Assembly (NCBI GenBank): GCA_052327205.1
Contig: CM126220.1
Coordinates: 51,894,001 to 51,958,000, forward strand
DNA: 64,000 nucleotides
Source: Somniosus microcephalus
Taxonomy: Eukaryota
Direction of reading: 5' to 3'
The notes under the pieces are model-generated. The model saw only the letters and a program-made list of their open reading frames with translations. It was not told the origin of the DNA and searched no databases. Below, piece after piece: positions 40,293 to 63,665 of this stretch (position 1 is the first letter of the stretch; every line of letters begins with the position of its first letter). The translations under genes and the position numbers were made by a program.

Positions 40293-40889
40293 GTATGTTG
40301 GTCCAGCTTTCCTGGATTTGTTTCTATGCCACTGATTTATTATATTTTTAACTGTGACACTTTAATTGATTTTTAAACTGATTAATTGAACACATTTATA
40401 ATACCATTTATAAATGCTATAATGTTCCAAAGAGCAGATTCAAAGAGAAGGTGTGTATTGTGTTAACTGAGCAGAAGAGAATTTCCTATGGTGGTGCCGC
40501 TGCTTAGCAACAGCGAATGCCTGCTGCTAATGTAGTCTATGGCGACTATCTGACTTTAGGGGCTCTTTATGGGCAGAAAGCCTCTGTACAAAATCAAGTC
40601 AAAAATCATTGTGAGCCTGAATTTGTTGCACCTGGATTGTACGATCAGTCAAAGGATAATGATTTGCAATGCACTATTGCCTTGTCTGCTGCTGATGCAA
40701 CATGATAAAACATCATTTTTTTGTGGCTTGGCATTTATATTACCACATGTGTGGTTTTAGCTATTCAAAGAAAAACTAAAGCTTGTGGAACGCAAACTAT
40801 AGTTTGTAGAATGCATTATGCTACAGCGAGGATTTTTTAAATTAAAGGATGCCACAAACAATGCTAATTTTTTTTGGTGATAATATGTA

Positions 40890-41219
40890 CAGGAAACTTT
40901 GGTTTATCCGGAGGTTGCATGTCTGGAAACCTCGATCAACCGGCAGAAATCAGGAGCCGTTTTGTTAGGTTTTTTTTCTTCTCGTGGCTTTTTTTTCAAC
41001 AGTCAGGCTCTGCAAAGTCTCTCTGAAGCTGTTGCTAAGCTACAGAGACGCTTCTAAGGTACGGCTGACTGTTTAGAAGCTGTTGCTAAGCAACAGTGTT
41101 TGTTGCCAGATAAGGAGCTGCAAATCTCCGTATGCTTCAACATTAACACTGGTATGTCTGGCAGTTTTGATAGATCGGCAACAGCTCGGTCCCGTCGGTG
41201 CCGGATATAACGTTTCCTG
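40890..41219. mobile_element. Tc1/mariner (pogo/Tigger-like) MITE
   Basis: TA|CAGGAAAC..TATCCGG and CCGGATA..GTTTCCTG|TA ends; internal direct repeat GAAGCTGTTGCTAAGC. Confidence 0.7.
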
Positions 41220-44200
41220 TATTTGATTGTTCTTGTGATTGGCTACTGTATCTGAGATTGCTTATTGTTGTTAAAGGATGCATCAAAATTGCTGTGTGGG
41301 GATTGAAAATGTTGTGGCTTTGGTTGTGTTGTTTAGGTGGTTGTTGTGCTCTCGCTGGGACTGATGTAGGTTAAGGCCCCAATATTCATGCACGCCACTC
41401 TTTGCCAAGGCATTAGACAGGTGCCGCATGCCCAAAGTGCAGTGTGCCTGCCCGGGCCTCTGAGAATCCACTGCTGCAGGCTCATCCTCTTCCCGGGCTG
41501 TGCGATGGAAACACAGGTGCAGCGTCAAGCCTGAGAGACAGGACTGGCCACTGGTCTTGGGGCATTCTGGCTGCTGAAGAGGGGAACATCTCATCACCTC
41601 CTGAGCACCGAATTGTGTTCTCAATTCTCTTTCTGCCTCAACGCAAAGTAGTCATACCTCTTCCCCCCACCCACCACCCTTGACCAATTCAGAACTTGTC
41701 ATCATCTTCCCTCCCTTTTAATGGTTATCAAAGAAATTAGAGACCTTACAGGAAGTTCTTTACTGCCATTACTCAGTCGCTCATCCCCTCTTCTCTTCCC
41801 TCCTTTGCACTGGTTTCATCTCTCTGTCCATGCTTTTACATTTTTGTTCTCTGAACTTCTTTCTTGAACTTGGATGGGATATTTTGAGTGCAGGGGATGA
41901 GCCTCGACCGAATAATGCTCAGATATTGTAACTTTGTGGTTAATGTGTCTCTGCACTCTGTGCAGCTCTCCTGCAATGAGTGATGCTATTGTGATTTTTG
42001 ATACTTGTGTTTAATGCCCTCTTAACCAGTAGATCTCCCATGGTGCTTCTCACTGGTTGTGAAGGGCCCTTTAATATTATTACTACGAGTGACTTTTTTC
42101 TACTTTGATGGTCTATAAACCACAGTTTCTGAAAATGTAATGAATGATAACCTCTCATTCCATCAATATTTTAAAAGGTGAAAGCAGGGCAGATTAAACA
42201 TTTATAAATGCCTAAAGAGACTATATTTAAAATATATATATTTTTTTTTTTGCCTGTCATTTAAAATAAGGATTGTGGGATTTTACCTGATGTCCTTGAC
42301 TGTTTGATCCTGACCAAGGTCTCTGAGGCGGTGCAGAATTTGCTTGGGTGAATGTTTTGAACAAGGCATTGAAAGTGCAGTAGAGTTAGATTTGGGAAGC
42401 AGCAAGCCCAGCACTGAGAGCAGAGTAGCTGTAGACCTGGTAGAGACACCTGGCGTTCAGGCCCATGAGTGTGAGGTCCATCGTATTGGCTGAGGGCAAG
42501 AGGTCTGGCACTGAGATCTGAGAGTGGGCGGAAGATCGTGGACCGGAGAACGGTTGCAGCTGCTGGGAATGGCAGCCAGAGGAGTAGCGTGGGGGAGGGG
42601 GAAAGCGAGCAGGAAAGTACTGAGCGCATTATCCTCACGCCTGCACAAAGTGACACCAAGGACCTGTGACGTCTCGTGCATGCATAGAGACCACAAAAGC
42701 GTCATCAAGGAGCACTGACCTCGCACACGCGAGAAACATCAAAAATCAGTTTTGGAAGGTGCAATAAATTCACAGCTCCGGGAATGGGGCAACGCACAAC
42801 GTCATGGCACTTGAGCAAGGGAAGGCCTGTGTGGCGGAAAAGTTGTTGTAGCTATTGGAAATAGATCATGATAAACTTAGCTGAATTTTTGTGATTTTTC
42901 CCCCCCCCCCCCCCCCACACACACACAATTGTTCATTACTTTACTGTTTATTATTATTGTTGTATACATGTAATTTTTAGGAGTGTATATAGGGGAAGCA
43001 ACATGGCAGCTGGCACACATGCAACAATCATACAGACAAGTCCCTGAAAAGCTGCTGTGTTTTTTTTTGCAGTGTTACAAACCGGTTGATGTGTGGGGTT
43101 CAGGTTTTAATATATCTCAGTACATGCAAGACAAATCTCAGCTGGATTAAGCAGCGTCTATTTATTGATTTACTTCAACCCGTACACAGTACATGTGATT
43201 GCCGTACATGAATGCAGCAGCTTTTCATTACTTAAATAAATCTGTTATTTTGAATGTGAAAAGGAATGAGTTCTGGATGGATTCCATGGTTTTGTTAACC
43301 TTTTCTGTATTAAACAGATTAAAGTACAAGGAGAAAGCATCAGATAGATGAACAATTTAACCACTGCTGAAGATAAATTGTACTCCTTTCACAGTTCGTG
43401 CCCTTGTCGGATTGTCTGACTGACTGTTTAAATTGCAATAAATCTCCCTCAGATGTCACCCTTAAATTTAGGTCACTTGATGCCACCCCCTGCTCGACTC
43501 CTGTTTTCCCAGCATTTACTGAAACCACATTAGAAGGGCAGAGTGTGTGGTTTCTGCACTTCAGTCTGTGAGGTATGATGTCATTATTTGAATTGAAAGA
43601 CCTTTCAGGTCTCATTAGCACAAGCTGCTGTTGGGACGTAACTTTCTTGCCACTCTGTTCCTGTTGCTTCTGTCTGCTCTGGCTTTGGTTACCTTCAAAA
43701 AAATTTTGTGACAATTATACAAATTCATGTCATTGTAAATACAGTTATGTTTTGTACAAGTTGCTAAATGAAGTGTCTACTTGACCCCCAATTACTTTAA
43801 CTTTCTATAAAAGCTAAATGCTTAAGAGGCAGAACATAAGGCAAAACTGAGAGATTGCCTCTTTATTTAGGGCCATGTTCAGAGCACGTACAACACGCGC
43901 TCATTTTCTTTACCGCTTCTCTGCCAACTCTACCTATTAAACGTAACATGTTGATCAAGTTGAAGGAAGTTCTTGGAGAGAAGGGTACAGGAACTAAGAG
44001 GGCAGATAAATGTGAGGGAGATTATCAAAAGCATGTGGATAGTACTAGACTCAATAGATGAGCCAATGAAGTGGGCAGACTAGATATTGGATGAAATAAC
44101 AACAGAAAATGCTGGAAAAACTCAGCAGGTCAGGCAACATCCGTGGAGAGAAATTTGAGTTGACGTTTCGGGTCAAAACCCTTTTTCAAAACTGGAAAGG

Positions 44201-44544
44201 AAATAAAATAGATCGAAGGCAGGGCTGCGATCGAACAAAAGAAGTAAAAGCTATCGTACTAGATATTGGATGAGCTAGGGCTATACAAATTACTGGTCTT
44301 CGATAGTGGCATCTTCTAATGAAGGCTATTTCCCACTTTCTGCTGATTTTGTTCTTGGGCATCTTTATGCCTGGATAACTTTTGATTCCTTGCTGACCAG
44401 GAGAGTGGGTCCAAGAAGCATCAGCTTCCATACTGATGAACTATCTGTGGCATAGCTGAGTCATTGGGAGTTGAGAACAATGTAGCCAAGTATAAGAGCA
44501 CCAAGTTAAAGAGGCAAATATTGAGGGGTGTAAAGGAAATGCGG

Positions 44545-45080
44545 ATATCTTCCATCCTCCATAAACTTAAGTTCATCTAAAACTCTGCTGCCCATATCCT
44601 AAAACTCTGCTGCCCATATCCTAACTCACCAAGTCCCGTTCACCCATCGCCCCTGTGCTCGCTGACCTATATTGGCTCCCAGTTCAGCAACGGCTTGATT
44701 TTAAAATTCTCATCCTTGGTTTCAAATCCCTCCATAGCCTCGGTCCTCCCTATCTCTAACCTCCTCTCAACCCTCCAACCCTCCAATATCTGCGCTCCTC
44801 CAATTCTGGCCTCTTGCGCATCCCCGATTTTAATCGCTCCACCATTGGCGGCTGTGCCTTCAGCTGCCAAGGCCCTAATCTCTGGAATTCCCTCCCTAAA
44901 CCTCTTCCCTCCTTTTAAGAAGCCCCTTAAAACCTACCTCTTTGACCAAGCTTTTGGTCCCTGCCCTAAGGTCTCCTTGTGTGGCTTGGTGATAAATTTT
45001 GTTTGATAACGCTCCTGTGAAGCGCCTTGGGACGTTTTACTACATTAAAGGCGCTATATAAATACAAGTTGTTGTTGTTG
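44545..45080 (+). mobile_element. L2 LINE 3' end inserted in an older CR1 fragment
   Basis: CCCTGTGCTCGCTGACCTATATTGGCTCCC...GGCGCTATATAAATACAAGTTGTTGTTG; near-identical to 52355-53001. Confidence 0.85.
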
Positions 45081-47170
45081 ACGGACAAAATTAGAAACGA
45101 GTCACAGCAGAGGACAGAAGGTTAGAGATGTCCCTAAGGAAGGTACAATAGTGAACAGATACCAGGCTCTGGCCTACACCGAAAGCAGATTAGGTCATAG
45201 AGGAAGAGGTGAGAAGATGCAGGCTGCAAGGCATGGGGGATATTCTAAGTAGAGAATTCACACAGAGTGATCAATACTGGGAATAGTCTTCCAGTAGGAT
45301 AGTGGCAACAAATATTGTGAAATAATTTAAGAAACCGTTCGACACTGTCATGGGGAATGTCACTTTTCTTTCTGGATGGATGAACTGAATGTCCTTCCAC
45401 CCCTGTATCAATCTCTGCTATACATTCACTTCTGTCAGTGCTGTGGTGAAACTTGGAAATCTTGCCCTTTTGTCATCTTAACTATCTGACAGGTCTAAAT
45501 GTAAGGTCTGAACTCAATTTTCATAATTTCCTGGGGAGAAGAGGATAATAATGCACGAGTTTCCCTTGCCTGTTTATGTAAGTTAATTTTAGCAAGAGAA
45601 CAGATTCAGAGTAGCAGTAAAATCAGTGGGAAAGTCTGTTTCTTGCTTTCTACCAATTCTTGCTGTTCTGTTTGCACATTTACTTTTTTTGTACGAACTA
45701 AAGAAAATAATCACTGTTACATTTAACTTGCCAGCGCCTTGGCGTTGTGCCTTCACACGAAGAATTTCTCCGTGGCCCTCTGTGAGTTTGAAATCATGGA
45801 TCATGTTTTCTTTCAGCCAGAACAACAACTGCATTCATATAGCCCCTTAATTTAGTAAAATATCCCAAGGCACTTCACAGGAGCATTATCAAACAAAATT
45901 TGACACTGAGCAACATATGAAGAGATTGGGACAGGAACTTAGTCAAAGTGCTAGGCTTTAAAGAGCGTCTTAAGAGGAGAGAGGTAGCAATGCAGAGATT
46001 TAGGGAGTGAACTCCAGAACTTAGGGCCTAGGCAGCAGCAATGATAATGTTCTCTTGCCCTATTCTTTTAGATATGAGGGGAAAACCCATCCTTGTCATT
46101 CTTTTGTAGTTCCTTTCCCAGAGCTCCCTTTCTGAGCACACCATGTATAATCTTAGTAATCTTGTTTTTAAATAGAACAGCGACAGGTTTATTATAACTG
46201 GAAACATTCAGAAATATATATTAACACTTATTTACAGGGCTATTCCAGGATAAGATGCCACAATGGCCTCATTTTTGAGAATTTTAGTGCAAAAATAATT
46301 CTTCAACCCCCCCCCTCCCCCCACCCCCAACTCAACATTTGACACTTTAAAACTAATTCTGAGCAAAACAATTCATCCGTACACTCATAAGGTCACCAAT
46401 CAAGGTTACCATCTAGGCTATAGTTTAGTGACTGAATGTAGTAACATGACATTTCTTTGCTTAACAACTCCCCCCCCCCCCCCCCCCTTGTCTCCCATCT
46501 GATCCTCTGAAACCTTGTAACAGTGGGGTGGGGTGGGGAGGAAAGCGGAGAGTTCTTGCTGGAAATGGAGGGTGAATGAAGAATTGTTTCCGCACTAGCC
46601 TGAGAAATTCTGTGAAAATGATGCTCCCAATTAGAAGGCAAACCGCTGTGTGGCGAGTTTATTTACTTTCAAAAACATTACTTTAACAGTGACTTTTTTG
46701 TTTTACTATTACGTCCAGAGAGAGGTTGTTTTATTCCCCAAAAAAATTGACAAGCTCATTATTTGTGTTTGTTCAGTCGTAACACCTTAACTACCTGTAT
46801 AGATATTTAATTAGCAATGCAATTGGCAAACTTTCTCAATGCAGACATTTTGGTTGTGGTTTTAAGTTTTGAAACTACACTCTATGCTGTGGTAATTTGT
46901 CCCTTGAATGGTAACCTAAAGATCAATGAACTTAAGCTATGTCTAAACCGCTGTCACCCACTAACATTCCTGTGAATTCTCATCAGCGGTGTACAAAAAG
47001 ACTTGAAAGAAAGACTTGCATTTATATAAAAACAGAAAATGCTGGAAATAGTCAGCCGGTCAGGCAGCATCTATGACTCTGTTTCTCTCTCCACAGATGC
47101 TGCCTGACCTGCTGAGTATTTCCAGCATTTTCTGTTTAGATTTTAGATTTCCAGCATCTTTTGCTTTTGT

Positions 47171-47620
47171 ACTTGCATTTATATAGTGGTTTTCACAACC
47201 TCGGGTCATCCCAAAGCGCTTTGCAGCCAATGAAGTACTTTTTTGAAGTGTAGTCTCTTGTGACATAGGAAACACAGCGGCCAGTTTGTGCACAGCAACG
47301 TCTCCCAGACAGCAATGCGATAATGACCAGATGATGTGTTTTTAATTATGTTGGTTGAGGATAAATATTGGCCCGGACACCGAGAGAACTCCCCTGCTCT
47401 TCTTCGAATAGTGCCATGGGATATCTTATGTCCATTTGAGAGGGCAGACCGGGGGCCTTGGTTTAACGGCTCAACCGAATGACGGCACCTCCAACAGTGC
47501 AGCACTCCCTCAGCACTGCACTGGAGTGCCAACCTAGATTTTGTGCTCGAGTCTCTGAAGTGGGACCTGAACCCACAACCTTCTGACTCGGAGGCAAGCA
47601 TGCTACCCAATGAACCACAA
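47171..47620 (-). mobile_element. DeuSINE (SacSINE1-like) tRNA-derived SINE
   Basis: tRNA-like head, then a Deu-domain-like core GAGGTGCCGTC...ATCCCATGGCACTATTCGAAGAAGAGCAGGGGAGTTCTC; L2-like tail. Confidence 0.8.
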
Positions 47621-49334
47621 GTCCAGTGCACCACCTACTGCAGAAAGTGGAAGCAGCAGACACAACATTGCTTACAGAACCAGAAAGGGGGGAAAAGGAG
47701 CTTATGTCAGATAGCATTGCATTGTAAGATTGTTTTACATTTTCTAACTTGATAATTTTCCAGACATTTTGCAATTCTGATTGCAGCTAAATCATCTATT
47801 TTTACCAACAGGAATGTTTTCCTCATCATTTTATTATGGAAGTTCACCTATGTGCCAATTAAACGTTAAAATAGCAGGGGGGGAAGGAAACGGCTACAGT
47901 GGAACCCCCATTGTGCACACTGAGTTTTTGCAGGAGAGCCTTTACTCATTACATGCCTCCTTTTGCTATTTTTATTTTATTTTCTTTAACAATAAAATCA
48001 CAATGTTCCACTTTTTTTTTTAATATTGTACTTGTCATCATTCTCATACCTAGGGTATTGTATATGTGCATGGTAAAAATTTGGAGACTCGCAATTTGTA
48101 TCATCCACCAGGGATGGATCATAGGTTCCTTTGTACTTCAAAATGCCATAAAATATGTTTGTAGTACTGGCTGTGCAATGATGTTTAATATCTGGCCCTG
48201 CATCACTGTCACCTTTTTTACTCTTTTTTTAACATTATGGTGCCTTTAATTCATGTTCGGGGTGCCCATTGTTTACTGGCAAGAAGAATTCAAAACAAAT
48301 GTTTAAAATGTACATCTATTTATAGCTATTGCCGATGAAGTTAAATCCCAAACAATTTTACGTATATTGATAAACTGCTGAAGCTTTGCTGCTGTGGATT
48401 ACTGCATGCTGCTTGTATTTTTCACTTCAACGCAACGGAAATAAAAATCGGTAGAGATGTAAAACGGCAAATCGGCAGCCTGTACCCAGGTTTACACTAT
48501 CGCACAAAGTCAAAATCTACCCCAATGTGTGGAATTTAAGGAATTTGGCACTGAACATTATTACTTCACAGAAAACGTTGCCTTTATTTGCATTTAAAGC
48601 CTCGTAACCTTACAGGATTGGTTCTGAAGACACGTGGAACTGAGAACCCCACGCAGAATAAAAAAAGTCCCGTGCTACTGGCCTAGAGACCCCTAAAACC
48701 CTCCCCTGGAAGTAAGTTCACTGGCGACTCCTGCAGCAAGCTGCCGCTGGCAGCAAAGGTACACTCCCAATGCCAGCAGCACTTCTGATCAGGTCCACCA
48801 TTTTCATTCTGCACGTCGTGTTACTCAGCAGTCAGTCACTTTGTACAAGGCCAGTTTCCATTGATCTCAGTGAGTCCAAGGCAAGGATGGAAAAGTCGCA
48901 AATGCAACTTTACCGCAATTGTGTATGCGGAAACTCGAATGCACACACAACTGTTGAGGCATATGCAGTTGTTTAATTATTACCGAACCTGCCAAACAGT
49001 ATAAACCAGGGGAATCCAGCACTGATGTCATGTGTATGACAGAACTGCTTCCATTGGAAGCATTCCATAATATAAAAGCGACCAGAAAGTCCACTAACTA
49101 GATCAACTATGCAGAAGTTACTTGTATGTCCAGAGAGTGAATATCACCATCTAACATTTTTTTTTTAAGAGTCAGGTTGTTACTGACCGTTAACTCGACT
49201 TTAACATTAATTTTGTTTTTCTGTATATTTGTTTAAACTATAAGAACTGATTACATCATTGAAGGATTTTAAATAACAACAGAAAATGCTGGAAAAACTC
49301 AGCAGGCCAGGCAACATCTGTGGAGAGAGAAATA

Positions 49335-50174
49335 GGGCCAGAATTTCAGTGTGCCGTGAGGCGGGCTTTTAGGCGTGCAGGGGGCAAAAATCCCGAATTC
49401 GGGGGTCCCGACACCATCCCGCCCAAAACCCGCCTCAACGTAAGTTTCAGAGGAGGCAGGTACCCGCCCTGCACTGGGACCCGCCGACCCGAGGTGGGAA
49501 GGGATTAGTGCCAATTAACTGCCTGTTAACAGGTAGTTAACGGGCAGTTTTTAGCCTAATCCCTATTTTGAGGGGTGTCGTGTGGGATTCCCGACGGCTC
49601 CAAACCACGCCAGGTTAGAGCAGGCGGGCTGTCGGGTTGAAGGACTTGGAGGGGTCGCGATGTCGGTGTTCAGGTGAGTGATGGGTGCATGAGTGCAAAG
49701 GTAAGTGTGTTTGGTGTGTCTGAAGTGTGTAAAGAAGTTTAAATTACCTGTACTTACCTTAACAGCCTTTTTTCCTGTAGGCGTCGGAAGTCCATCACTC
49801 AGCCGGCACTGAAAGCTGAACGGCTGCGATGTCAAAAGTGACAGCCTTCAACTTTGTGTGCCGGTGACGGTTCTAACTGAGTCTGCGTAGAAGGACTCGG
49901 GTTAGAAGTCAGACTGTCAGTGTTTGACAGCTTCAAACAGCTGTGAAACACTGATATTTCATCTGTCAAAAACTCTTGACAGATGAAATTTCAGTCTGTG
50001 ACATCACCTGTTGCCGGGTGGCCCTTAATTGGCCTGCTGAGCCTGCTGGGTGGGCTCAACAAGGTCAATCAAGGGAAAATCGAGTGGATTGGCCGGACGT
50101 CGATGGAGGCGGGACTACAACCCGAAAGTTGTAGTCCCGCCTCCTTCCCGACTGCTGAATTGAAAATCCAGCCC
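49335..50174. mobile_element. Non-autonomous Harbinger-type element (840 bp) inserted in a Penelope-type repeat
   Basis: Imperfect TIR GGGCCAGAATTTCA / TGAAAATCCAGCCC; 3-bp TSD ATA; host repeat rejoins as GAGAGAAATA|GAGTCAAC. Confidence 0.78.
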
Positions 50175-52354
50175 ATAGAGTCAACATTTCGGGTCGAAAC
50201 CCTTCTACAGAACTGAGAGAAAAGGCAGGAAATGAAGGATTTTGCTTGGAGGAGCTAGTGTCAGTAGAGATCTAACCATTAATCGGAGTACTCCAGCTCT
50301 AATTGTATAGTCCGAGTTAATTTTAGTTCCCTTACACCACTGGGCTCAAAGATTGCTCCAACCCAATTGTATTTATGTTATCATGATATCTTCCTCCGCA
50401 CTTGCCTTTTTAAACAAAAAAATGATTTCCAATTTAATTTTATAATAAGAGGTCATGATGCATTTAAGGGGAAGCTAGATAAGTACATGAGGGAGAAAAG
50501 AATAGAAGGATATGCTGATGAGGTTAGATTAAATAGGGTGGGAGAAGGCTCGTGTGGAGCATAAAAACCAGCATAGCCCAATTGGGCCAAATGGCCTGTT
50601 TCTGTGCTGTAAATTCTATGTAATGGTAACTATACAATTGAGCAAAAAGCATTGCTTTTTTAAAATGTCTTTGTCCCGTTTCCTCTCTGATTTACTCCTC
50701 CACTCCAAGGACAGTTAATTATATCAGAGCATGGTTCCAGGGGTGCTGGCAAACCTCCCGTCCTTTGCCCAAGTGACCATTCTTCATGTTTGAGTCTGGA
50801 CTGTGAGTGCCAGCAAGCTCAACTGTCGGACCCATCGCAGCCAAGCCAGATCCTGCCTGCACCTGTCATCCACACACACTATCCAGCAGGGGTCACTGGA
50901 TAGTAATCAGGAGTGGGGAATCCAGGCCAGTTTCCCCCCCCCCGCCCCCGCGCTCCGAGCTCAAGGATGCAGAGCCTAATTGTAGCAACAATATTATTTT
51001 TAAAACAAAACTACTGCGGTTGTTTTTCCCTAGCATTTGTCAAGTCTGAATTAGGCATCTCATCTGGAAATAGAATGAGTCATTTGAGTCATGTCAACAA
51101 AACCTAGCCTTATGTAACTGGCTGGGTTTTAGTGGATTATTATTGCTTCAATCTCATTTTGTGCAAGGGTACTTCTGAAATGAAGAAGCGGTTCTATTAT
51201 TGTATTCTCTGCGTTAAAAAGTCTCACTGTGCAAAATGTGGCCAGATTAATGGGCCTATTGGGCAGTGGAGATGTTGGAGCTAAAATGATTGCTGTTATA
51301 TATTTGTCCCAAGCTGTCAGCTGCATAAACCAGAAACACAAACTGCACTGGCTGCCTGCTGCAGAACTGACATCACTCAATTCCCTGGAGATATGAGATC
51401 ACAAATGCCAAAGCTATGAATGATTATAATTGTTCAAAGCACAAAAGATTAGAGTGACAGCTTGTTATATGATCTCATCCCCAAGTCCCATGAGAGATCT
51501 GTGCTGTTTTATTGGGTGTTGCAGCATCGAGCCTATCCTACAGCACCAGGCATGGGGGAAAAGGATGACACGTGAATGTGGCTGTGTCAAATTTGACTCG
51601 TGGTCTTTGGAAGGCAAGCAGGTGACTTTTTATTCCTGTTGCAGTGACATCATTGCTATCTTCACAAGGAGCCATGGTTTCCACGCCAACTGTTGTGATG
51701 CAGCTGCTCTTGATGCAATTTTGTGTTTATACCTGTAAATATTTCAGTTGCAGCCATTTAAGCAAACAGTCAGATTAGGAAAATTAAATTCCCTCTTTAG
51801 GTTTGAAAAAAATTCACTTGTTAAGAATCAAGGTACTAATTGTTGGGATGTAAGCAAAATGCTGGTGTCTCTACAGAGCTAATCTGTCAGCATCTGACAA
51901 AAGAAAAGAGAAAAACAACTTGCATTCTTATAGTGCCGCTTACACTGCAGCACATCTGAGTGCTTTATAAGGTGTTGCTGACTTGGAGGTGTGAAGAATT
52001 AAAGGTGGGGAAGGAAAGAATGCAGAGTCAAACTAATAGGTTTTTGAAGAGACTTTTGAAGGAAGGGGAAAAAGGGATCAATGCTAAATGGCTTTTGGAG
52101 AGAGTTTCAAAGAGCAGAGATCTAGAGCTGTCTCTGATGACGACGCTGCAGGTGAGGGAGGGGGAGGCGGGTGAGGCATGCATCTGAGAAATTGATTCTT
52201 ATGTTAATGGCATGCATGAGGGTCTCAGTCACAGAGGGAGCAATTTTTGTTTTGCTGATGTTGAGCTGAAGGAAATTTCAGCTCATTCAAGACTTGGCGT
52301 CTGATGGGCAGTCAGATAGTGTGGCGCCTCCTTGCTCTATATCATGGTTGGCCT

Positions 52355-53001
52355 CTTTCCACCTCCAGAACATCGCCCGACTCCACCCCTGCTTCAGCTG
52401 ATCCGCTGCTGAAGCCCTCACCCATGCCTTTGTTACCTCTAGACTTGACTATTCCAACGCACTCCTGGCCAGCCTTCCCCGTTCTACCCTTCGTAAACTT
52501 GAGGTCATACAAAACTCTGCTATCCGTGTCCTAATGCGCGCCAAGTCCCATTCACCCATCATCTCTGTGCTCACTGACCTACATTGGCTCCTGGTTAAGC
52601 AACGCCTCGATTTTTAAAATTCTCATCCTTGTTTTCAAATCCCTCCATGGCCTCGCACCTCCCTATCTCTAATCTCCTCCATAACCCTCCCATAGCTGCG
52701 CTCCTCTAATTCTGGCCTCTTCAGCATCCCTGATTTTAATCGCTCCACCACTGGTGGCCGTGCCTTCAGCTGCCAAGGTCCTAATCTCCGGAATTCCCTC
52801 CCTAAACCTCTCCACCTCCCTACCTCTTGTTCCTCCTTTTAAGATGCTCCTTAAAACCAACCTCTTTGACCAAGCTTTTGGTCATCTGCCCTAATATCTC
52901 CTTATGTGGCTCGGTGTCAAATTTTATTTGGTAACACTCCTGTGAAGTGCCTTGGGACGTTTTACTATGTTAAAGACACTATATAAATACAAGTTGTTGT
53001 T
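52355..53001 (+). mobile_element. L2 LINE 3' end
   Basis: HAFVTSRLDYSNALLA motif and TACAAGTTGTTG tail. Confidence 0.88.
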
Positions 53002-53224
53002 GGCTGGGAGTGGTAGAGTTGGATGTTGTCATGAAACATGCGCTAACTGATCCTTTGCTTGAGGATAATGGCACTTAAACATAACATGTAGATGATAAAT
53101 AGGGTGGGACCAAGGATGGAGCACTGGGGCATATCATAGCTGGGAAACCATTTTGGAAATTTAGTAGTTTGTGTTAGGACAGATAAGAATGGAACTAGGA
53201 GAGGCTGGTGTGAATTTGTCAGAC

Positions 53225-53655
53225 ATGGATTAATGGAGCACTCTCATCTGAGTCAGAAGATTGTGGGCTAAAGCCCCAAGTCCAGAGACTTGTGCACGTA
53301 ATCTAGCCTGGCACTTCACTGCAGTACTGAGGGAGTGCTACACTGTTGGAGGTGCCAACTTTGGATGAGATGTATAAACCAGGGCCGCATCTGCCCTCTT
53401 AGGTGGCACTATTCAAAGAAGAGCAGGGGTTTTCTCTCCATGTCCTAGCCAACATTTATCCCTCACCCAACATTGCTAAATAAAAGATTATCTGGTCATT
53501 TACCTCATTGCTGTTTGTGGGACCTTGCTGTATGCATATTGGCTGCTGCATTCGCCTACATTACAGTAGGGACTACACTTCAAAAGTACTTAACTGACTC
53601 TTGAAGCACTTTGGGGTGTCCTGAGGACGTGAAAGGCACTATATAAATGCAAGTT
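53225..53655 (+). mobile_element. DeuSINE (SacSINE1-like)
   Basis: Plus-strand paralogue of 47171-47620. Confidence 0.8.
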
Positions 53656-55042
53656 CGTCAGTCAGTCAAGATGGACCACAAAAAATAGGCATTGGAGGAG
53701 AATTGAGCGATCAAATGTGCTGAAGGCAGTGAGTTAACCAAAGTATTAAGAAGGACAACAAGTCAGAGTCGCAGCAGTACAAGATGTCTTTTGTGGCATT
53801 CACCCGGTGCTGTGAAAAGACAAGTTCATTTTCCAGGTGAGACCTCCTTGTCAGAACAACATTAACCTCTTTCAGACTTTAACACACCTGCTGTGTATTT
53901 CTGGTATTTTCTTCCAGATCTACGGCATTTGCAGTTTTTCTTTTTAATCGGTGGTGTTGGTCTCAACTAGTCTATTAGTTATATTTCTATTTTCCACACC
54001 GGTTTTTCATTTTAGAGACAGAGGATGCTACTAAAATCATTGTGAATTATGAAATAGAACAAAAAACAACTATAAATTAGATTTACAGGTTAAATAATAT
54101 GGAACTTGTTCTTTTATTGAATAAAGAAGTCCGTCACATTTAATTGTAGACCCGAATCTCTAATTCTATTTCTATTCTAGTGATGCTGGCCAAAGTGAAT
54201 AGAAACCAGATCAACTTAAAGCTTCACTTTGGCATCACTGCTGTAAAATAATTTTATAAACAAAAATAGTGATTAGAAGACTGCCTTTTCATAAATGGGA
54301 CACAAGTTTGAATTCAGACCAGCCTACTGGAATGAAAAGCATCTCTCTCTGCTAGCTGTAAGAGTTCGAATTGAAGTGAGTTTGGGCACTCAACTCAATT
54401 CCCAGTGGTTACGAGTTCAGAGCTTTGAACAATGAGCATTGAACAGTTCTCCATGAATTGGCACTAAATGGATAATATCACAGAGAGAGGAGAAGGATGA
54501 CTGATCTTTGAAATACAAATTGTCACATTGATGCAGTAGGGGGCATGCTTCTGATGTTGGATGAAGGCTTATTGCTGGGGCAGTACAAAGAGGAACTTCA
54601 CCCTGCATCTAACCATCTGTACCTGACCTGGGAGTGCTTCGCGCTAAGATTGTATGGAAACTGTTCATTTGCTTACATTGGAAACCCTCAACCCATATAG
54701 AGCAGGAGAGTTATTAAAATTAAATAAATTTTAATAGTTTACGTAGCCACATACATTCATGTAAATTACCTTTTAGAAAATGCAATTGTGAAAATGTTCC
54801 TTAAAAAGGCATTACAGTATTACTCTTGTCTATTTTTGTTTAAGGGCTGTCACTCGTACTCCCCCACTCACTTTTATTTACAGAATGACAATTTGGGGTG
54901 GAACAATTTTACTTCTTATTGTGTTGCAATCAGTTAAATGTTGGCATTAAAGGAATATTGTTCATTAATGAGCACAGTTGGCCAGTTCTGCCCACCAGCA
55001 ACACCCTGACAATTGAAAATGTATAATCTAAATATATTACCT

Positions 55043-55417
55043 TGTAGGAATGCCTAGTTCCTATCCAAAGACTGAAGTCCACTCAGGCGCTCAAACAAAA
55101 CGAAGTTTAATGGAAACTAACAGGTTTAAACAAGTAACTGCAGGAGAACATCGAGTGTAGGTCTATTCAGTTCGGAGGCTCCACGAGGACTGCTGGCTGG
55201 TCCCGTGGTTGACGTCATGACGTCATCATGTTCTTCCCGCTAGTGGGGGATCACGTGATGTACGGCGTGACGTCATCGCATTTACCCGCGCTGTTAAAGT
55301 AATCACGCTCTGTACAAGTAAACAGCATAAATAAAGATACAGACTCGGGCTGTAGCTAACATGTTGTTAAAGGGAATTATATACAAACGATCTGAGTCCT
55401 TTAGTGGCTCCGCCACA
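55043..55417 (-). mobile_element. Probable solo LTR (375 bp)
   Basis: TGT...ACA termini; near-duplicate 4-bp flanks ACCT/AACT; CpG-rich in an AT-rich intron; ATTAAA on minus strand near 55110. Confidence 0.65.
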
Positions 55418-56299
55418 AACTTAAAAAAAAAGTTAGTGCATCCTCTCCTGATGGCACTGTGGATACGAAAACACCATGTGGTGTGGTGAGATCCAGAACC
55501 ATACTGACCAGGAAACTCCAGGTTTGATCTGTAGTCCTTGCTCCGTTAGCTCACTCACCTCAACCAGAGTAGCAGTGGGGATGCAACAGTTGCCTTTGGA
55601 GTTCCTGAGTTGGGAGGGGAAATTACTAAAGGTTCTTTGTCCTGATTGCTCTCTAGTAACCTTGGCTGGAAATTGTGCATATGTGGACATAGTGTGAGGA
55701 CAAGATGTGGTTCAATGTTCTGGAATCTCAGGCAGTTTGTCCACTTAGACAAAGTAACCCAATGGTTCCCTGTGGAACTGTACCCCGGTATAAGTTGTGC
55801 CCTTAAGAAGTGAAAGGGAGAAAATTGGGGGTAAGAAATAGCAGAGCAGCATTCCTGATACTTTCCCAGGTTGGTACTTTGAATGTTAGTGAGGTGAACT
55901 GACTGACTCCTGCCCACCCATAGCTTGATCTGTTTCCCAGGAGTGACATGATGTAATAGCAGACAGAGTTAATAGACTCAATATTAGGTCTGTCACTCCA
56001 GCTGAAGTGAAGGGACCTGGGTTAGGCATTTACCGGATAAACTTTTAAAATCGAGTTATATTGTTTGAAAGCACCCTTTAGAGTGATGGGTATATTAAAA
56101 ACAAGATAATACTCCTTTTCATCCCTGTCTTAAACCATTTTAAACCTGTAGACTGAATAGAACTTTCAGAGCATTTCTGAACAAAGTATCATTACTCTAA
56201 ACAACAACACTGGAATAGAAGTATCTGGTTGGTTTAAAAGCAAAGGTAAAATGTGTCTTATTCACAGTAGAATTAAATCTTTTAAAACTGTTTTTGCAG

Positions 56300-56449
56300 G
56301 GAACACTCTACCTTCTGATAGAAGAAATGAGCCAGTTATTGAGATCTTTGATACCTATCCAGCTATGGTACAAATGCATCATGGGAGGAGACTCCACCAA
56401 TAGCTACTTGTTGGAAGGCACCCTGATTGTTCTGTACAGTCTCTGCAAG
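56300..56449 (+). CDS. RNFT2: RNFT2 coding exon 6
   Basis: GTLYLLIEEMSQLLRSLIPIQLWYKCIMGGDSTNSYLLEGTLIVLYSLCK; TTGCAG acceptor, AAG|GTGAAT donor. Confidence 0.96.
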
Positions 56450-56804
56450 GTGAATACTCAGAAGCAAACAGAAGATGACTTGTTACAGAAACATTTTCTT
56501 CCTTTTTGTTTCTTGTGGTTTGCACAGGGGTGTACTGTTTTCAGTTTGCATTCATTCTATTTACAATTATGATGCATGAAATCAGAATAAAAATACATTT
56601 ATTGCATATGGGTCTTTGAGCGTTCTCCAGCTTTTAGACCTATTAATTGTTCTGCCAAAATAATCTTTGTAGGTCAACTACTGGTTTCACTAAGTAATTA
56701 TGAACAAGAGGTGCAATTTGAAACATTTACAACCTCGCTGCATTTTTGGAGAAGACTTCCTCTGTTTGAAATTTGTAGCAAGACCACAATTTGTAGCAAG
56801 ATAA

Positions 56805-57417
56805 TAAACTTAACTGGAGCAGCTACATAAATACTGTGGCTACAAGAGCAGGTCAGAGGCTGGGTATTCTGCAGCAAGTGTCTCACCTCCTGACTCCGCA
56901 AAGCCTTCCAACATCTACAAGGCACAAGTCAGGAGTGTGATGGAATACTCTCCACTTGCCTGAATGAGTGCAGCTCCAACAACACTCAAGAAGCTCAACA
57001 ACATTCATGACAAAGCAGCCCGCTTGATAGGCACCCCATCCACCACCTTAAACATTCACTCCCTCCACCACCAGCGCACCGTGGCTGCAGTGTGTACCAT
57101 CTACAAGATGCACTGCAGCAACTCGCCAAGGCTTCTTCAGCAACACCTCCCAAACCCACGACCTCTACCACTTAGAAGGACAAGTTCCCCTCCAAGTCAC
57201 ATACCATCCTCACTTGGAAATATGTCACCATTCCTTCATAGACGCTGGGTCAAAATCTTGGAACTCCCTCCCTAACAGCACTGTGGGAGTACCTTCACCA
57301 CAGGGACTGCAGCGGTTCAAGATGGCGGCTCACCACCACCTTCTCAAGGGCAATTAGGGATGGGCAATAAATGCTGGCCTTGCCAGCAACGCCCACATCC
57401 CAGGAACGAATAAAAAA
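56805..57417 (+). mobile_element. Non-LTR LINE 3' fragment, same family as 3490-5200
   Basis: Direct sequence similarity and the MSAAPTTLKKL ORF. Confidence 0.82.
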
Positions 57418-57596
57418 GTACCTCCTTTATATTCAAGTCTACAATTTTGCTACAAATAACAAACAGAGGAAATGTCCCAAACTCCTGTGGCATATGGATA
57501 ATTTATCATTTTATTGTATACTGCTTATCTTTGACAATTTATCCAACATTGTTTCTTTTGACCAGTAGTATATTCTCTCTTTGTAAAATGCTGCAG

Positions 57597-57662
57597 TTCT
57601 TGGATGTCTGTGGTCGAATAGGTGGTTTGCGAAAGGCCTTGAAGATCTTGTGTAAATCACAG
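57597..57662 (+). CDS. RNFT2: RNFT2 coding exon 7
   Basis: FLDVCGRIGGLRKALKILCKSQ; CTGCAG acceptor, CAG|GTAAAT donor. Confidence 0.95.
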
Positions 57663-59873
57663 GTAAATTGCGTTTGATCAACAGAAGCACTCTGCACCGT
57701 TGGCTATACTTATAACCAATTTCTGACAGGGAAAAGTACTAAGTGGAAACCAGTTATTTCCTTACAGGGAGGAAGGGAACATCCAAGGGGCTCTTCATCC
57801 CATGCTGTTGCTACACACTTGGAGGTCAAATTGAGAGCACTGGCAGAGACATGGCCGAAAGTGGTCTGTCCCAGATACAGAAGTGCCTAAAGGAAATGAT
57901 GAAAATAAATCTAAATGAAACAAAATTCTGAACTAGATTTGGTGTTTAGACACATTTGTCATTAAAATTGTTCAACATTTACTGTTACAGAAAAACCTGA
58001 GACTTGAGGTTGAGCATTAATCAGTGCTCAAAATTGCAGAGTTGGGAACATATCCATAAAAGCATTTTTAACTGTGTACACTCACCACGCAAGCTCTCAC
58101 TCATTCTGTAAGGAAAACCATCCGAAGTTGTGATTGCATCTCTTATAATTTATAGTTAAGTGCACTAAATGTTATAAAGTGTTTACGACCATGTTTCTCT
58201 GTCACATTTAAGCGTTAGTAACTCTCAGCTCAGGAAGGTTTACTGCAGTTGGTTGTAGCTGCCCGGGGAGCTATCGCTTTATTACTATCCAGTGACTTCA
58301 GCTGGAAATGGCATATGTGTGGACAGCGTTGATTGTTTGTGATGCCACCTACAGTTTATTAAGCCACTAACACTGCCCATGCTCACACATGCAGTGTGGC
58401 TAAGTGGGCAAGGTAGTGGAGGCCTATTAACGCCAGTGCAATTATACCCAGCATGACATACTGCCTTCAGGAAAAGAGGGTTAAGGAGAGAAAGCAGGAG
58501 GAACAGGAAACATTTACCTTTACCTTACAGCCACGCAAAAGTGACAGTACAACTCCAGAGTTAGGACCTAACCTGACTCCCAAGCAGTGAGACCTCCTCT
58601 GAAGAGACAGTTTCACACTGCTGGGGTTTAACACCACATGGGCCAAAACTCCAGTCCCATGTAATACCTGCCTTAAGAAGTGCTCATGGGTTCCTTTGAC
58701 CTCCTTGGCACTTTTTTTTTTACAAGCTTACAGTGCTGCTTTGAGTGCGTGGAAACTCCAGCCCACAAACTCAGGCCATTTAAAATGTAACAGCAAGGGG
58801 CAGAGCTCTGAGCATAAGCAGACGAGGCACAGGTGGAGCTCTTCCCTAAACCTGAGAATCTGATTTGAAGCGAGGGAGCATTCTCCCAGGATGAGATCAA
58901 TTCTGTAGGCTCTCAATCCTGGGCAAGTGAATACAGGTATGGTAGAGGAGTGGGTAGAGGATTGGAATAGCGACTCCAGAGGTCAGGAGCGCAAGTTTCA
59001 TTATGAAATTGAATTCAGTAAATCTGGTAATTTGTGGGGCTGGCAGCATAACAACGACTATGAAAGCTGCCAGATTATTGTAAAAACCCAGCTGGTACAC
59101 GCATGTCCTTCAGGAAAGGAAACCTGCCCACCTGGTCTGGCCCACCTGCCATTCCAATTGCTCACCATGTGGTTGACTCTTGATGCCCCTCTGAAGTGGC
59201 CGAGCAAACAATCACTACTATCTTCTCAGAGTAACTGGGGGAGCTGATAAATGGCATTGGGAGTGGGTCAACGTTCTGTCTTTACAAGGACACGAGAGTG
59301 TCGACATAAATGAAGAAGAAAATAAAACTTTTAAGTGGGGGCAAAAAGAAAATCTGTACCAAGTCAAAATAACTAGCCCTGCAAAAGACTGTGGAACTTT
59401 ACAACATAATTGATGCCTGAGACTAAAAGCTGCGTGGATTTTACAGCGACTGATGTAATCTTCAATTCCAGAGGAGCGTTTATGTTACGGGGTTGGATGC
59501 GGAGTCTATTGTAATTAGGTTATACGGCTCTTGACTTCACAACTGTGAAAGGGTCTCCTTGGTCTTTCAGCACAATTAGCATTATGTCAGCCGCACTTCT
59601 ATTACATAAAGTGAAACTTTCGCATTGATTTTTAGATTAATTTCTTCTTGGGACCAATGCCTTGTTTTGCGACTATCCTCAGTCTGCACAACTACATCTG
59701 CTGTTTTCCAAAGGCTGAAAAGTATCAAAACAATGGGAGACCCAGCATCAGCGCGCTTTATAAATTAAAGCCACAGTATTGGCACGATCTGCATTGGGTT
59801 TTTGTTGTTGTTGGAAAATAGCAATATTAAAGCTGTGCTTCTGACTTGCTGCAATTGCCTTCTCTCCTGGCAG

Positions 59874-59975
59874 AGCTGTGGCGTGCGAGCCACCAGCCAG
59901 CAGTGCAGCGAAGCCGGAGATATCTGTCCGATCTGCCAAGCAGAATTTCGAGAGCCTGTGATGTTGGTCTGCCAG
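59874..59975 (+). CDS. RNFT2: RNFT2 coding exon 8 (RING N-half)
   Basis: SCGVRATSQQCSEAGDICPICQAEFREPVMLVCQ; GGCAG acceptor, CAG|GTAGGG donor. Confidence 0.96.
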
Positions 59976-60431
59976 GTAGGGGAGAGAAAAACAAACAAAA
60001 AGACTCTGGATTGTTTTTAGCGGTTATAGAAAGGATTATTTCTGTGTGTGTGTGCAAACCGATCCTCAATGGTCTGTTAAACCCGGCGTTGCAAGCACTG
60101 GCCGAGAGTTTCCCTGAGCAAGATTTGATGGTTTTAATTACCTGATCAGCAGATACATGATAAGCGATCAGTCTGATTGTTACAAATGGGGGAGGTCGGT
60201 CCATTACCAGACAAACAGCCCTGTTAAGGCAGAGAAAAGTGACATTTATCATTGGTGCATTGCATTGGGAAGCGTGAGACATGACAAAAATCGAATGAAG
60301 CACTGTGCTTAAGAATCAATTTATAATTGTGGGAATGATATGTAAAGAACCAGCAGAGAACAGGCCTGTAGGGCCATTGGTGCTGTAGTGCACAGTACTG
60401 CTCGAAGCAGGGTTCACAGTTAGTACAGTGT

Positions 60432-60645
60432 AAACAGGAAATGCTGGAAATACTCCGCAGGTCAGGCAGCGTCTGTGGAGAGAGAAACAGAGTTAATGTT
60501 TCAGGTCGATGAATGTTCTGAAGGGTTATCGACCTGAAACTTTAACTGTTTTTCTCTCCACAGATGCTGCCTGACCCGCTGAGTGTTTGCAGCATTTCCT
60601 GTTGTATTTCAGGATTTCCAGCATCCGCAGTATTTTGCTTTTGTT
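60432..60645. repeat. Palindromic short repeat, Penelope-like terminal repeat type; partial copies at 26437-26525, 44098-44195, 47030-47170, 49278-49334/50175-50215 and about 53810-53940
   Basis: About 75-bp inverted arms (AATGCTGGAAATACTC.GCAGGTCAGGCAGC.TCTGTGGAGAG..) around a short spacer containing CTGA..GACCTGAAAC. Confidence 0.7.
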
Positions 60646-61189
60646 GATCATAGTTAGGGCCAGCTTTGCATCTTTAACAATACAGTTGCCATGTTGAGGG
60701 ACTTTCTTCAATGTGTTTGGAAGACACATTCGGCAGAAACCCAATTGTGGAGTAGGAGCACACAATCTTATTCATACGTTTATGAGCACTTTATTTCTGT
60801 ATCACACGTAGAGTGGGACAACATAAACTGTGTTCACGCGCAGCCTATCTACGTGTATTCAAGGCAATATATTTAAACATACAATCGAGTCTTAGATTTG
60901 AGTTGTATTTTTGAAAGGTGCACTGGGAGTTCTAATCAAAAGGTGGAGGCTTTAGAATGTGAAATTGCAGCGGCTAACGTGCACCCCGCCCCGCCCTTTC
61001 TTAATGAGAGGATTGAATTGCCACTGCATGCTTTCGGTGCTAGTGTAGAGAGATGAACGGTTCGGTTGTAGTGTGGCTGATGTGACTCCGTTCGCTTACC
61101 GGTACGTCTCCTGCAGCTTCACAAGTGCGGATCTCACTGATTCTGTTCTGTGCCCTTGTCTTCTCCACCTCCTCCTCCTCCTCCTCCAG

Positions 61190-61324
61190 CACGTCTTCTG
61201 CGACGAGTGCGCTTGCCTGTGGTTCGACCGGGAGAGGAGCTGTCCAATGTGCCGAACCGCTGTCATCGAGACCCTGCGCTGCTGCAAGGACGGGACCACC
61301 TCAGCGCACTTCCAGGTCTATTGA
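61190..61324 (+). CDS. RNFT2: RNFT2 last coding exon (RING C-half, stop)
   Basis: HVFCDECACLWFDRERSCPMCRTAVIETLRCCKDGTTSAHFQVY*; completes a C3HC4 RING; (CCT)n CCAG acceptor. Confidence 0.97.
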   Translation, partial: HVFCDECACLWFDRERSCPMCRTAVIETLRCCKDGTTSAHFQVY

Positions 61325-61508: not shown

Positions 61509-61514
61509 AATAAA
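61509..61514 (+). terminator. Candidate RNFT2 polyadenylation signal (alternative at 62212-62217)
   Basis: AATAAA about 185 nt after the stop codon. Confidence 0.45.
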
Positions 61515-63289
61515 TATTTCAAAATCAGCACGTGTCTGTTAGGTAAAGGTATTCTATATTTACGTTTTAAAAAGGCCTCGCTAAACAAGGGGAATGTATC
61601 CTAGCGTGGTTGTTTCAACATCAGCCTTCATCTTGCGGTTGGATATTCTATTAAATATGTTATTCTGTCACTTGATTCATGTGGTTTGCAGAAGGACATC
61701 TTCATGAAATATTTGTTTTCGCTCAATGCAAATTTAAGGTCCTTTAAATGATACCGGAGAACATGTTCTGGTATTGAAACATTTATTTAGAGTTTCAAGT
61801 TTATTTTTCAAACATTCTATGAAACAACAGACTAAAAAAGTAACCAAAGTCGTCATAAGTGTATTTACAATAAGACACTACTACAACTTTTTAAAAAATC
61901 TCGTACTTTTGTAATTACATGCAGTAACATCAACAATTGTATTCAACTGGTATAAAATTGCGGTAACAAATGTTACATTCCAAATTTAAAAGCATGCATG
62001 TTTTAGTTGTTCTGATGTCTTGTAAAATGTAACCAGTGCAGTTTTCCGGCCCAACTCCTTCACATTCCGGTAGTTTGTTCAGCCCAAGTCTGCGGCTGAG
62101 TTTCACTCCAGGGCAACGCTCTGACCTTTAGTGCGTCGACGGAATGACAGATACTCCACCTGTCACCTGCAAAGGAGGAGAAGAAATTCATTGCAGTGCT
62201 GCTTACTATTGAATAAAATAAAAGTAAAGCTCGTTTTCTGAAACGGAAGTTGCTGTAACTGCCTTTCCTCAGTAATCTCATGCACCACTTCTCTTGAAGG
62301 AGGCACGCGAACACTACTTTGGGAGCGATACTTGTGAGTTGGGCTTATGGAATTTGATTTAATACTGGTAACTTTGAAGTCATTTTCAGAAGAGAATAAA
62401 ACTCCTTAGTGCCTTACCGTAGTGGGGGTGGGGTGTAGCTGTGTCATAAGTGCTAGAGCAAATGTAAACTTGCTTGATAGTTGACTGAGCATGCAGCAAA
62501 AACATTATTAGTAAATAGCCCACAGCTCAGAAGACCATATCTTAAATTCAATCAAGATTATCTCTTCCCCCCTCCCCTCCATTTCCCCTCAGTTCTACTC
62601 TTCCTCTCCTTGGGAGGTAGCTCGTGCACTGGCGCACTGTGTCGCCCAAGTGGCCCCACAGTGAGAGTTGGCGGGCTATTTCACTGGTGGACGAGAAGAG
62701 TACTCAGCATGATTGTATCCTCAGAACACACACACACACGCGTTGCAGCTGGGGTGACTGGCCATGGATCAAAAGGAACGCTGGCTGATTTTCACCATCA
62801 GCTCTGAGATGGTCAGGCCAATTGTATCATCCCTGGTACTGTCCAGCTGAGATCAGCTGTCTCAATGAAGCCCGAGACTTTCCACAATATGGCTCAGTGC
62901 CACGCCACCAGGTGATCCAGAAGTTAGTTAATAGGCTCACTTTTAAAAAAAATTGCTGTCTTTGGAGTTCTGCATTTGGAACCCCTTGGTCAAAATGACC
63001 AATATTAAAACTGACTAGAAGTTCCCCTCCACAGATATTTACATTAAAAAAATTATGATATCAGCTTGTTTCTGGTTTAAATCAAGCTACTCCGGCAAGG
63101 CAAGATAATTATTTCAATGTTAGTATTAAAATAATAGGATCAGCATCTGAAGTTGTAGTTGATAATTGCACTCGTGTCGGAGCAAATTAAGTACTGTAGC
63201 TCGAATATGTTTAATCACAGTATTCGGGCGAATGCAAAGCCGACGGCTCCTCTTACCTGTTGAAGTCCAGATCCCAGGTGTCAAACTTC

Positions 63290-63547
63290 CTACAGGTGTT
63301 TTTTTCTGATGAGCATGAGGATCGCTGTGACATGGACGAGCGTGCAAATGGTGTAAAGGTGCCTGTTGCTGACGTTAGTATGGATTCTGTTCCTGTCGGC
63401 GGCTTTCCTCTGTGCCCTTTCTTGCAAATGGTCCCCTATAAGCCTCAACCTTCTGGCGACCTCCTGCACTTCGGAGCAGCGTTCCCCCGGCCGGCCGGAG
63501 GCGCACACACACACCGTCCTGTCCACATCGTCTGCTTGCTGACACAT
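63290..63547 (-). CDS. HRK: BH3-only pro-apoptotic protein, HRK/harakiri (DP5) orthologue, 85 aa, single coding exon
   Basis: MC..VCVCASGRPG resembles recalled human MCPC..VCACSAGRLG; BH3 VARRLRLIGDHLQ (LxxxGD); C-terminal hydrophobic helix followed by RKKHL; convergent with RNFT2 as in mammals. Confidence 0.88.
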   Translation of the reverse strand: MCQQADDVDRTVCVCASGRPGERCSEVQEVARRLRLIGDHLQERAQRKAADRNRIHTNVSNRHLYTICTLVHVTAILMLIRKKHL

Positions 63548-63604: not shown

Positions 63605-63665
63605 CTCTATTATTAATTAAAGCTGCCTCCAAGTGTCACATGGCGTTCCGAGGGATTTACATCAT
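63605..63665 (-). promoter_or_regulatory. HRK proximal promoter (ATF site, E-box, TATA-like box)
   Basis: Minus strand TGATGTAA (63657-63664), CATGTG (63637-63642) and TTAATTAATAATA (63608-63620), 60-120 nt upstream of the ATG. Confidence 0.7.

Follow-up and report, generated by a model that had tools for sequence, protein, structure and literature searches.

The window, by which we mean the whole 64-kb stretch of DNA that was analysed, carries on its minus strand an 85-codon open reading frame (ORF) that is almost certainly a shark orthologue of the BH3-only gene HRK. This assignment is based on the Pfam match, region-by-region profile tests, synteny, a promoter site and the predicted gene structure, and it bears out a preliminary description that had called the ORF a probable HRK gene. 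The best explanation of the locus, which we hold with high confidence, is an intact and unannotated HRK orthologue that would act as a JNK-induced, tail-anchored BH3 protein.

The open reading frame and its locus

The ORF runs from ATG to TAG at 63547-63290 on the minus strand. The following features were assigned to it:

63290..63547, minus strand: HRK coding sequence without interruption, 85 aa followed by TAG (translation; Pfam PF15196 Harakiri)
63476..63514, minus strand: N-terminal Cys motif, residues 12-24 (VCVC..GRPGERC), also found in frog HRK and predicted to be disordered (frog-profile score, invariant Cys, low-pLDDT coil)
63425..63460, minus strand: BH3 motif, residues 30-41, with h1 V30, R33, h2 L34, R35, h3 I37, G38, D39, H40 and h4 L41 (translation and register against human HRK)
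63359..63424, minus strand: basic linker, residues 42-63, poorly conserved in sequence (net charge +4; alignment gaps)
63293..63358, minus strand: C-terminal tail anchor, a hydrophobic helix of residues 64-80 followed by RKKHL (Kyte-Doolittle; structure model; weaker profile support)

All the elements previously described, namely an 85-aa ORF with VCxC..GR, LRLIGD, a basic linker, a tail and RKKHL, were present; the strand, which had not been given, is minus. The segments VCVCASGR and LRLIGDHL are residues 12-19 and 34-41, respectively, and the BH3 register was set against Thr33/Arg36/Leu37/Lys38/Leu40/Asp42/Glu43/Leu44 of human HRK. The ATG has a purine at -3 and is preceded by 93 nt without another ATG. 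C15 and C24 were invariant in all 10 alignment rows, and the hydrophobic 17-mer of residues 64-80 had a mean Kyte-Doolittle value of 2.16. The structure model, of modest confidence (mean pLDDT 65, pTM 0.33; pLDDT 87 over residues 71-80), showed coil up to residue 25, followed by helices at residues 26-55 and 61-84. It concurred with hydropathy on a disordered cytosolic part, a helical BH3 and a C-terminal membrane helix. Human HRK is described as disordered in its cytosolic part, with one helix at 29-53 and another in the membrane (PMC3121775).

Since the window holds 113 ORFs of at least 60 aa (ATG or open-ended), the length of the ORF is by itself no evidence. The combination of a BH3 core and a hydrophobic tail was found in one of 141 ATG ORFs of 50-250 aa in the window. 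The shark ORF shows the BH3-only pattern, with h1-h4, the invariant Gly-Asp and neither BH1 nor BH2. No credible BH1/BH2 motif was present in the 2061 window frames, the sole BH1-like match being antisense to a retrotransposon. A multi-helix BCL-2 fold does not follow the BH3, as the ORF ends at residue 85 with two helices and no BH1/BH2 exon pattern is nearby. No Pfam match was obtained for the plus-strand frames that cover the ORF or lie upstream of it, and the 64-kb window gave no Rfam match.

Two neighbouring genes were recognised:

24339..61324, plus strand: RNFT2, in tail-to-tail arrangement with HRK, with matches to nine coding exons (tblastn with sawshark RNFT2)
23454..23564, minus strand: first coding exon of probable SPRING1/C12orf49, head to head with RNFT2 (translation)

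The coding end of RNFT2 (61324) lies approximately 2 kb from the HRK stop, on the opposite strand. The syntenic position previously claimed was thus confirmed on the side that is visible; the window ends 453 nt upstream of the HRK ATG, and FBXW8, the other expected neighbour, would fall outside it. The second RNFT2 exon (24895-25376) was closest to that of the sawshark Pristiophorus japonicus (94%), followed by 92% for Cetorhinus and Heterodontus, 86% for chimaera and 76% for coelacanth among the best 120 of 290 matches. Of the 11 matches that came next after the best one, 10 were named records of cartilaginous fishes and the other was unnamed. These closest relatives indicate that the window is of shark origin, in keeping with the cartilaginous-fish-like genome suggested before. 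We take the exon at 23454..23564 to be SPRING1/C12orf49; it had no Pfam match, and no further SPRING1 exons were found with three motifs. The exact human gene order and orientation at the HRK locus are likewise our assumption. RNFT2, HRK and FBXW8 lie at one locus in human (PMC6445783, PMC3732286), and SPRING1, RNFT2, HRK and FBXW8 lie within one interval in goat (PMC12686773). The protein KAG2470675.1 (P0115) of the bichir Polypterus senegalus, named FBXW8, is a fused RNFT2-FBXW8 gene model, and therefore RNFT2 and FBXW8 adjoin in ray-finned fish. The fusion probably arose as an artefact of annotation, in which the interval expected to contain HRK was skipped.

Several other features were observed in the window. 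An open Ty3/Gypsy-type pol frame of 962 aa (2-2890, plus strand), which encodes protease, RT, RNase H and integrase domains, is cut by the window start. Several copies of LTR-retrotransposon gag-pol, fragmented, tandem or nested, lie at 11280-19436 (plus strand). Many broken LINE-like reverse transcriptase fragments, presumably of CR1 type, occur on both strands at 4100-10300, 19800-21300, 31500-31830 and 33900-34200; the fragment at 9027-9497 matched Pfam RVT_1. A G-rich 33-bp minisatellite (26 copies, 90% match) with related 44-bp units occupies 22445-23466, directly after the probable SPRING1 exon. A 292-aa ORF without a Pfam match lies within an RNFT2 intron (32781-33659, minus strand); together with the adjacent ORF at 33514-33747, it resembles what we take to be a Harbinger-type Myb/SANT-like transposon gene.

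Relationship to HRK of other vertebrates

An HMM comparison, which the preliminary description had proposed, placed the shark protein in the Harakiri family. Residues 11-54 matched PF15196 with an E value of 3.6e-7 and 31.1 bits, above the curated cutoff of 27.9. Harakiri was the sole match at E up to 10 among 24736 Pfam models, and no BIK, BIM, BMF, PUMA, NOXA or PXT1 model was reported within that limit, at which HMMER filters conceal most matches above E 0.1.

A frog-HRK profile was then made from eight named frog proteins; the seven that were scanned with Pfam (all but P0138) exceed the Harakiri cutoff. Neither this profile nor the tree included P0130 or P0136, a 115-aa X. tropicalis protein with divergent ends. 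The profile scored 53.2 bits against the whole shark protein, 28.4 bits against its N-terminus (residues 1-26) and 12.5 bits against its BH3, and in each case none of 2000 shuffles reached the score. For the C-terminal half, which contains the tail, the score was 6.6 bits and was reached by 10 of 2000 shuffles. Therefore, the likeness to HRK reaches beyond the BH3. Over the 2061 stop-to-stop frames of the window, the shark ORF alone matched the profile (E 3e-14; runner-up 0.62).

The PDB was searched with three queries. With a profile of the shark, frog and unnamed proteins, HRK peptides, which in the PDB span the BH3 only, were four of the five best matches. With a fish-only profile, BCL2L15 (E 0.012) was level with HRK peptides (E 0.019-0.35) and unrelated helices, and the single shark sequence returned unrelated helices only.

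Exact look-up did not find the shark protein in a collection of 15 billion proteins, and a single-sequence word search found no relative sharing words with it. A phmmer search over 1.84 billion representatives gave four matches. An 88-aa protein, P0123, and a frog hypothetical protein, P0124 (39% each), were kept; a cricket fibronectin-like protein (P0125) and a repetitive protein (P0126) were dropped as repeat artefacts. A four-sequence profile had 10 matches among 151 candidates: two query members, one frog-like protein, six further frog records and one turbot protein. No amniote HRK was returned among these candidates, and with a search of such limited reach distant annotated HRKs of fish may have been missed. 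No close cartilaginous-fish relative was found by word search, exact look-up or phmmer, though the sister protein collection contains RNFT2 of eight or more cartilaginous genera. Since a close shark orthologue would far outscore every match obtained, cartilaginous HRK seems to be unannotated in the proteomes searched. In the ESM Atlas, all scores with the shark and turbot proteins were under 0.9 and the top clusters were unnamed chordate proteins; none of the matches listed for the shark protein belonged to the Harakiri family. A tree of 11 HRK-like rows, which held no outgroup families, had long fish branches and did not separate the deep branches.

The frog HRK-like proteins exceed the Harakiri cutoff, yet they are named hypothetical, uncharacterised or transmembrane protein, which agrees with the earlier remark that short divergent ORFs are often missed by annotation. 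Xenopus is represented by P0134 (KAE8635333.1), P0135 (OCU02117.1) and P0138 (OCT98455.1), the first two of which are above the Pfam cutoff. Frog HRK (Xenopus tropicalis KAE8635333.1, Eleutherodactylus coqui KAG9487800.1) was 36-40% identical to shark HRK and resembled it in length (83-85 aa), MC start, VCVC..ERPGE.CS motif, RLR..GD.L and tail anchor. However, Thr at h1 and Val at h3 were found in seven of seven frog rows, and the frog linker is shorter and more basic.

The turbot protein F2P81_014303 (KAF0034237.1, P0137, 93 aa), found by the four-sequence profile with E 1.1e-4, aligned with shark HRK from end to end. It shares the MC start, CS before the BH3, RLRRIGDQL and a tail anchor ending RRHL; it differs in Leu at h1 and a Gly/Ala-rich linker. 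Against the frog profile, no shuffle of 2000 reached the score of the whole protein, the BH3 or the tail, whereas its N-terminus was weak (30 of 2000). Its Pfam Harakiri score, 11 bits (E 0.64), was below the cutoff. We consider it a good candidate for a teleost HRK, and this identification is likely to be correct.

Mammalian HRK (harakiri, DP5) resembles the shark protein in size, in the BH3 register Arg-Leu-x-x-h3-Gly-Asp-x-Leu, in the C-terminal membrane helix and in the basic end. The mammalian gene also lies beside RNFT2, has its entire ORF within exon 1 and a donor shortly past the stop (predicted in the shark), and has the promoter site discussed below at a similar distance. In the shark, Thr33 (h1) is replaced by Val, Leu40 (h3) by Ile and Glu43 by His.

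Promoter, predicted transcript and alternative explanations

The following elements were recognised around the coding sequence:

63657..63664, minus strand: ATF site TGATGTAA, the same as the c-Jun/ATF2 site of mammalian Hrk/dp5 promoters (assigned by position and match; putative function)
63630..63642, minus strand: two hexamers of E-box type, CATGTG and CACTTG, flanked by the ATF site and the TATA-like element; such hexamers are common and count as weak evidence
63610..63620, minus strand: TATA-like element of A/T, located 73-63 nt ahead of the ATG (sequence)
62167..63256, minus strand: predicted intron of 1090 nt within the 3' UTR (donor and acceptor consensus; prediction only)
61782..62166, minus strand: exon 2, predicted and non-coding, which contains AATAAA at 61805 and 61787 (prediction only)

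In the rat Hrk promoter, the same octamer at -96 to -89 binds c-Jun/ATF2 and is required for induction after NGF withdrawal, and transcription starts 37 nt ahead of the ORF (PMC2685101). The shark octamer, which is also on the sense strand, is 117-110 nt away from the downstream ATG, as compared with 133-126 nt in rat. It occurred four times in the window against 2.48 expected, which is no enrichment, and the chance of finding it in a 200-nt sense window is approximately 0.004; its weight thus comes from its position and not from its window-wide frequency. The site can be extended to a 10-mer that it has in common with the rat probe and that is found once in the window, but this extension was picked after being seen. 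The TATA-like element would place the shark start site approximately 40 nt before the ATG, close to the rat distance. Mammalian Hrk promoters have a conserved E box (PMC2685101); no GC box was seen between the shark ATF site and E box.

Rat Hrk exon 1 consists of the ORF and a short piece of the 3' UTR, followed by an 18.9-kb intron (PMC2685101). In the shark, a donor, CAG|GTAAGA, lies 33 nt past the HRK stop; it fits eight of nine consensus positions and is the best in 2.1 kb, and the chance of a donor within 55 nt of the stop is approximately 0.03. The best acceptor, at 62167|62166, has 16 of 16 pyrimidines. As a sequence prediction, this donor and strong acceptor agree with the rat exon structure, the predicted shark intron being 1.09 kb long as against 18.9 kb. 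The gene had been described as single-exon; this stands for the coding sequence, whereas the gene probably has a second, non-coding exon. Under the usual 50-nt rule, the predicted transcript would escape nonsense-mediated decay, because the donor is only 33 nt after the stop. Poly(A) signals within 61324-62400 were located at 61509, 62212, 62217 and 62395 on the plus strand and at 61805 and 61787 on the minus strand. The 3' UTRs of RNFT2 and HRK may overlap in antisense.

We consider it very improbable that the gene, although an HRK orthologue by descent, is silent, decaying or put to non-apoptotic use in this lineage. Such a fate would fit its absence from the 15-billion collection, the lack of a word-sharing relative and the lack of a close relative among the 1.84 billion representatives, though RNFT2 of at least eight cartilaginous genera is present. 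However, the frame is open, the BH3 and tail anchor are intact, and the promoter site and donor are retained. Moreover, the CpG observed/expected ratio is 0.76 over the ORF versus 0.47 window-wide. Frog HRKs are also merely 'hypothetical' proteins, so that missed annotation is the norm for HRK. By analogy, the shark HRK is very likely a functional pro-apoptotic gene.

The Cys motif and BH3 were also matched by BCL2L15 (BFK), which has a Cys...GEPCS segment ahead of an RLR..GD motif. PDB 7ccl (BCL2L15) matched window positions 63425-63530 with E 0.003-0.012, that is, E 0.0028 with the profile of shark, frog and unnamed proteins and E 0.012 with the fish-only profile; in addition, ESM Atlas neighbours of the shark protein included PXT1, BIM, BIK, NOXA and BMF at 0.80-0.86. 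These matches would be expected if the ORF were a different BH3 gene (BIK, BIM, PXT1 or a BCL2L15/BFK-derived fragment) that is HRK-like by convergence or in its BH3 exon alone, which we regard as very improbable. No other Pfam family was matched, within the limits of the HMMER filters above E 0.1. The N-terminus and tail resemble frog HRK outside the BH3, the locus, promoter site and intron position are those of HRK, and the 2061 frames hold no credible BH1/BH2. We take BFK to be a folded BCL-2-like protein at another locus; its PDB chain has 183 aa, whereas the shark ORF ends after the tail anchor. The BH3 exons of BCL2L15 and HRK possibly have a common origin, or are alike by chance. Finally, short ORFs are plentiful and a BH3-like core occurs by pattern in five frames, but a chance ORF in the gap behind RNFT2, to which we attach almost no probability, is refuted by the Pfam match above cutoff and the frog-profile tests, with three regions matching in the right order at the right locus.

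Function, binding selectivity and the age of HRK

An orthologue of HRK in the shark is likely to act, by analogy with mammals, as a JNK-induced, tail-anchored BH3 sensitiser that neutralises BCL-XL. Stress such as the loss of trophic support would activate MLK-JNK signalling, and c-Jun/ATF2 would bind the conserved ATF site and switch on the two-exon transcript. The 85-aa protein would enter the mitochondrial outer membrane via its C-terminal helix, and its disordered cytosolic part would fold so that the BH3 helix lies in the groove of pro-survival proteins. There, V30, L34, I37 and L41 would occupy pockets 1-4 and D39 would pair with the BH1 arginine. Neutralisation of BCL-XL and its relatives by the sensitiser would free BAX/BAK, and apoptosis would begin.

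Hot spots of human HRK have been mapped in a Thr33-Leu44 register (PMC12396273). Arg36, Leu37, Asp42 and Leu44 are unchanged in the shark, whereas Lys38, Leu40 and Glu43 are replaced by Arg, Ile and His, respectively. At h1, the shark has Val, and both turbot and P0123 have Leu; the seven frog rows have Thr, as does human HRK (Thr33). In human HRK, T33I, T33M and T33L raised BCL-2 binding, and T33L was a dual BCL-XL/BCL-2 inhibitor (PMC12396273); the turbot h1 Leu is the residue of this engineered inhibitor. Ile at h3 was preferred for MCL-1 binding in BIM-based libraries (PMC9171138, citing Dutta 2010). This preference lends backing from the literature to the earlier suggestion that the shark BH3 might bind a different set of pro-survival proteins. 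Because of the h1 substitutions and h3 Ile, fish HRK is predicted to be a broader binder than human HRK. For the shark, we predict by analogy that h1 Val and h3 Ile give stronger BCL-2 and MCL-1 binding than in human HRK, noting that the binding rules derive from human proteins and that the h1 changes assayed were to Ile, Met and Leu rather than Val. His40 in place of Glu43 may weaken binding, and BCL-XL is expected to be the main target. The preliminary description had considered the shark IGD to be Bim/Bik-like; this did not hold, as BAX and BAK also have IGD (PMC9171138) and frog HRK has VGD. The better-documented difference from human HRK is at h1 (Val30 versus Thr33).

Absence of HRK from fish or zebrafish is asserted in three papers (PMC8998228, PMC6148235, PMC6124574). 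The first of these writes that 'Hrk appears absent', and in one of the three HRK is said to be restricted to higher vertebrates and missing from Xenopus (PMC6124574). The absence from the zebrafish BCL-2 family, which the preliminary description had mentioned, is thus in print (PMC6148235). The main text of BCL2DB does not mention Hrk. No published shark or fish HRK was found in the literature searched, which included few subscription journals, and an earlier annotation may exist somewhere. A 2026 preprint containing 'Hrk' was set aside, as it concerns mouse testis. The general statements that fish and Xenopus lack HRK are contradicted by the gene found in the shark and by the Xenopus proteins.

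With a shark orthologue at the RNFT2 locus, the earlier proposal that HRK predates the split of bony and cartilaginous fishes is upheld. The shark gene belongs to a known family, and the novelty is its earlier origin, not a new kind of system. Together with the frog and probable turbot counterparts, it places the origin of HRK in the jawed-vertebrate ancestor and implies a failure of annotation; judging from the promoter sequence, the HRK stress switch probably also dates to the first jawed vertebrates. A wider reading, to which we give somewhat less than an even chance, is that HRK is pan-gnathostome and has been missed in shark, teleost and frog annotation, that the JNK/c-Jun-ATF2 switch is ancestral, that the ancestral BH3 was broad and that the BCL-XL selectivity of human HRK arose in tetrapods. 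The broad ancestral BH3 would combine a hydrophobic h1 with Ile at h3 (Val/Ile in shark, Leu/Ile in turbot), and two tetrapod steps would follow, h1 to Thr by the frog-mammal ancestor and h3 to Leu later. If this is true, zebrafish may carry an unrecognised hrk beside rnft2. The shark gene offers a recipe for locating hrk in two animals well suited to the study of neuronal death, zebrafish and Xenopus. At h1 and h3, which govern selectivity among BCL-XL, BCL-2 and MCL-1, it supplies natural variants, so that evolutionary change in binding selectivity becomes testable.
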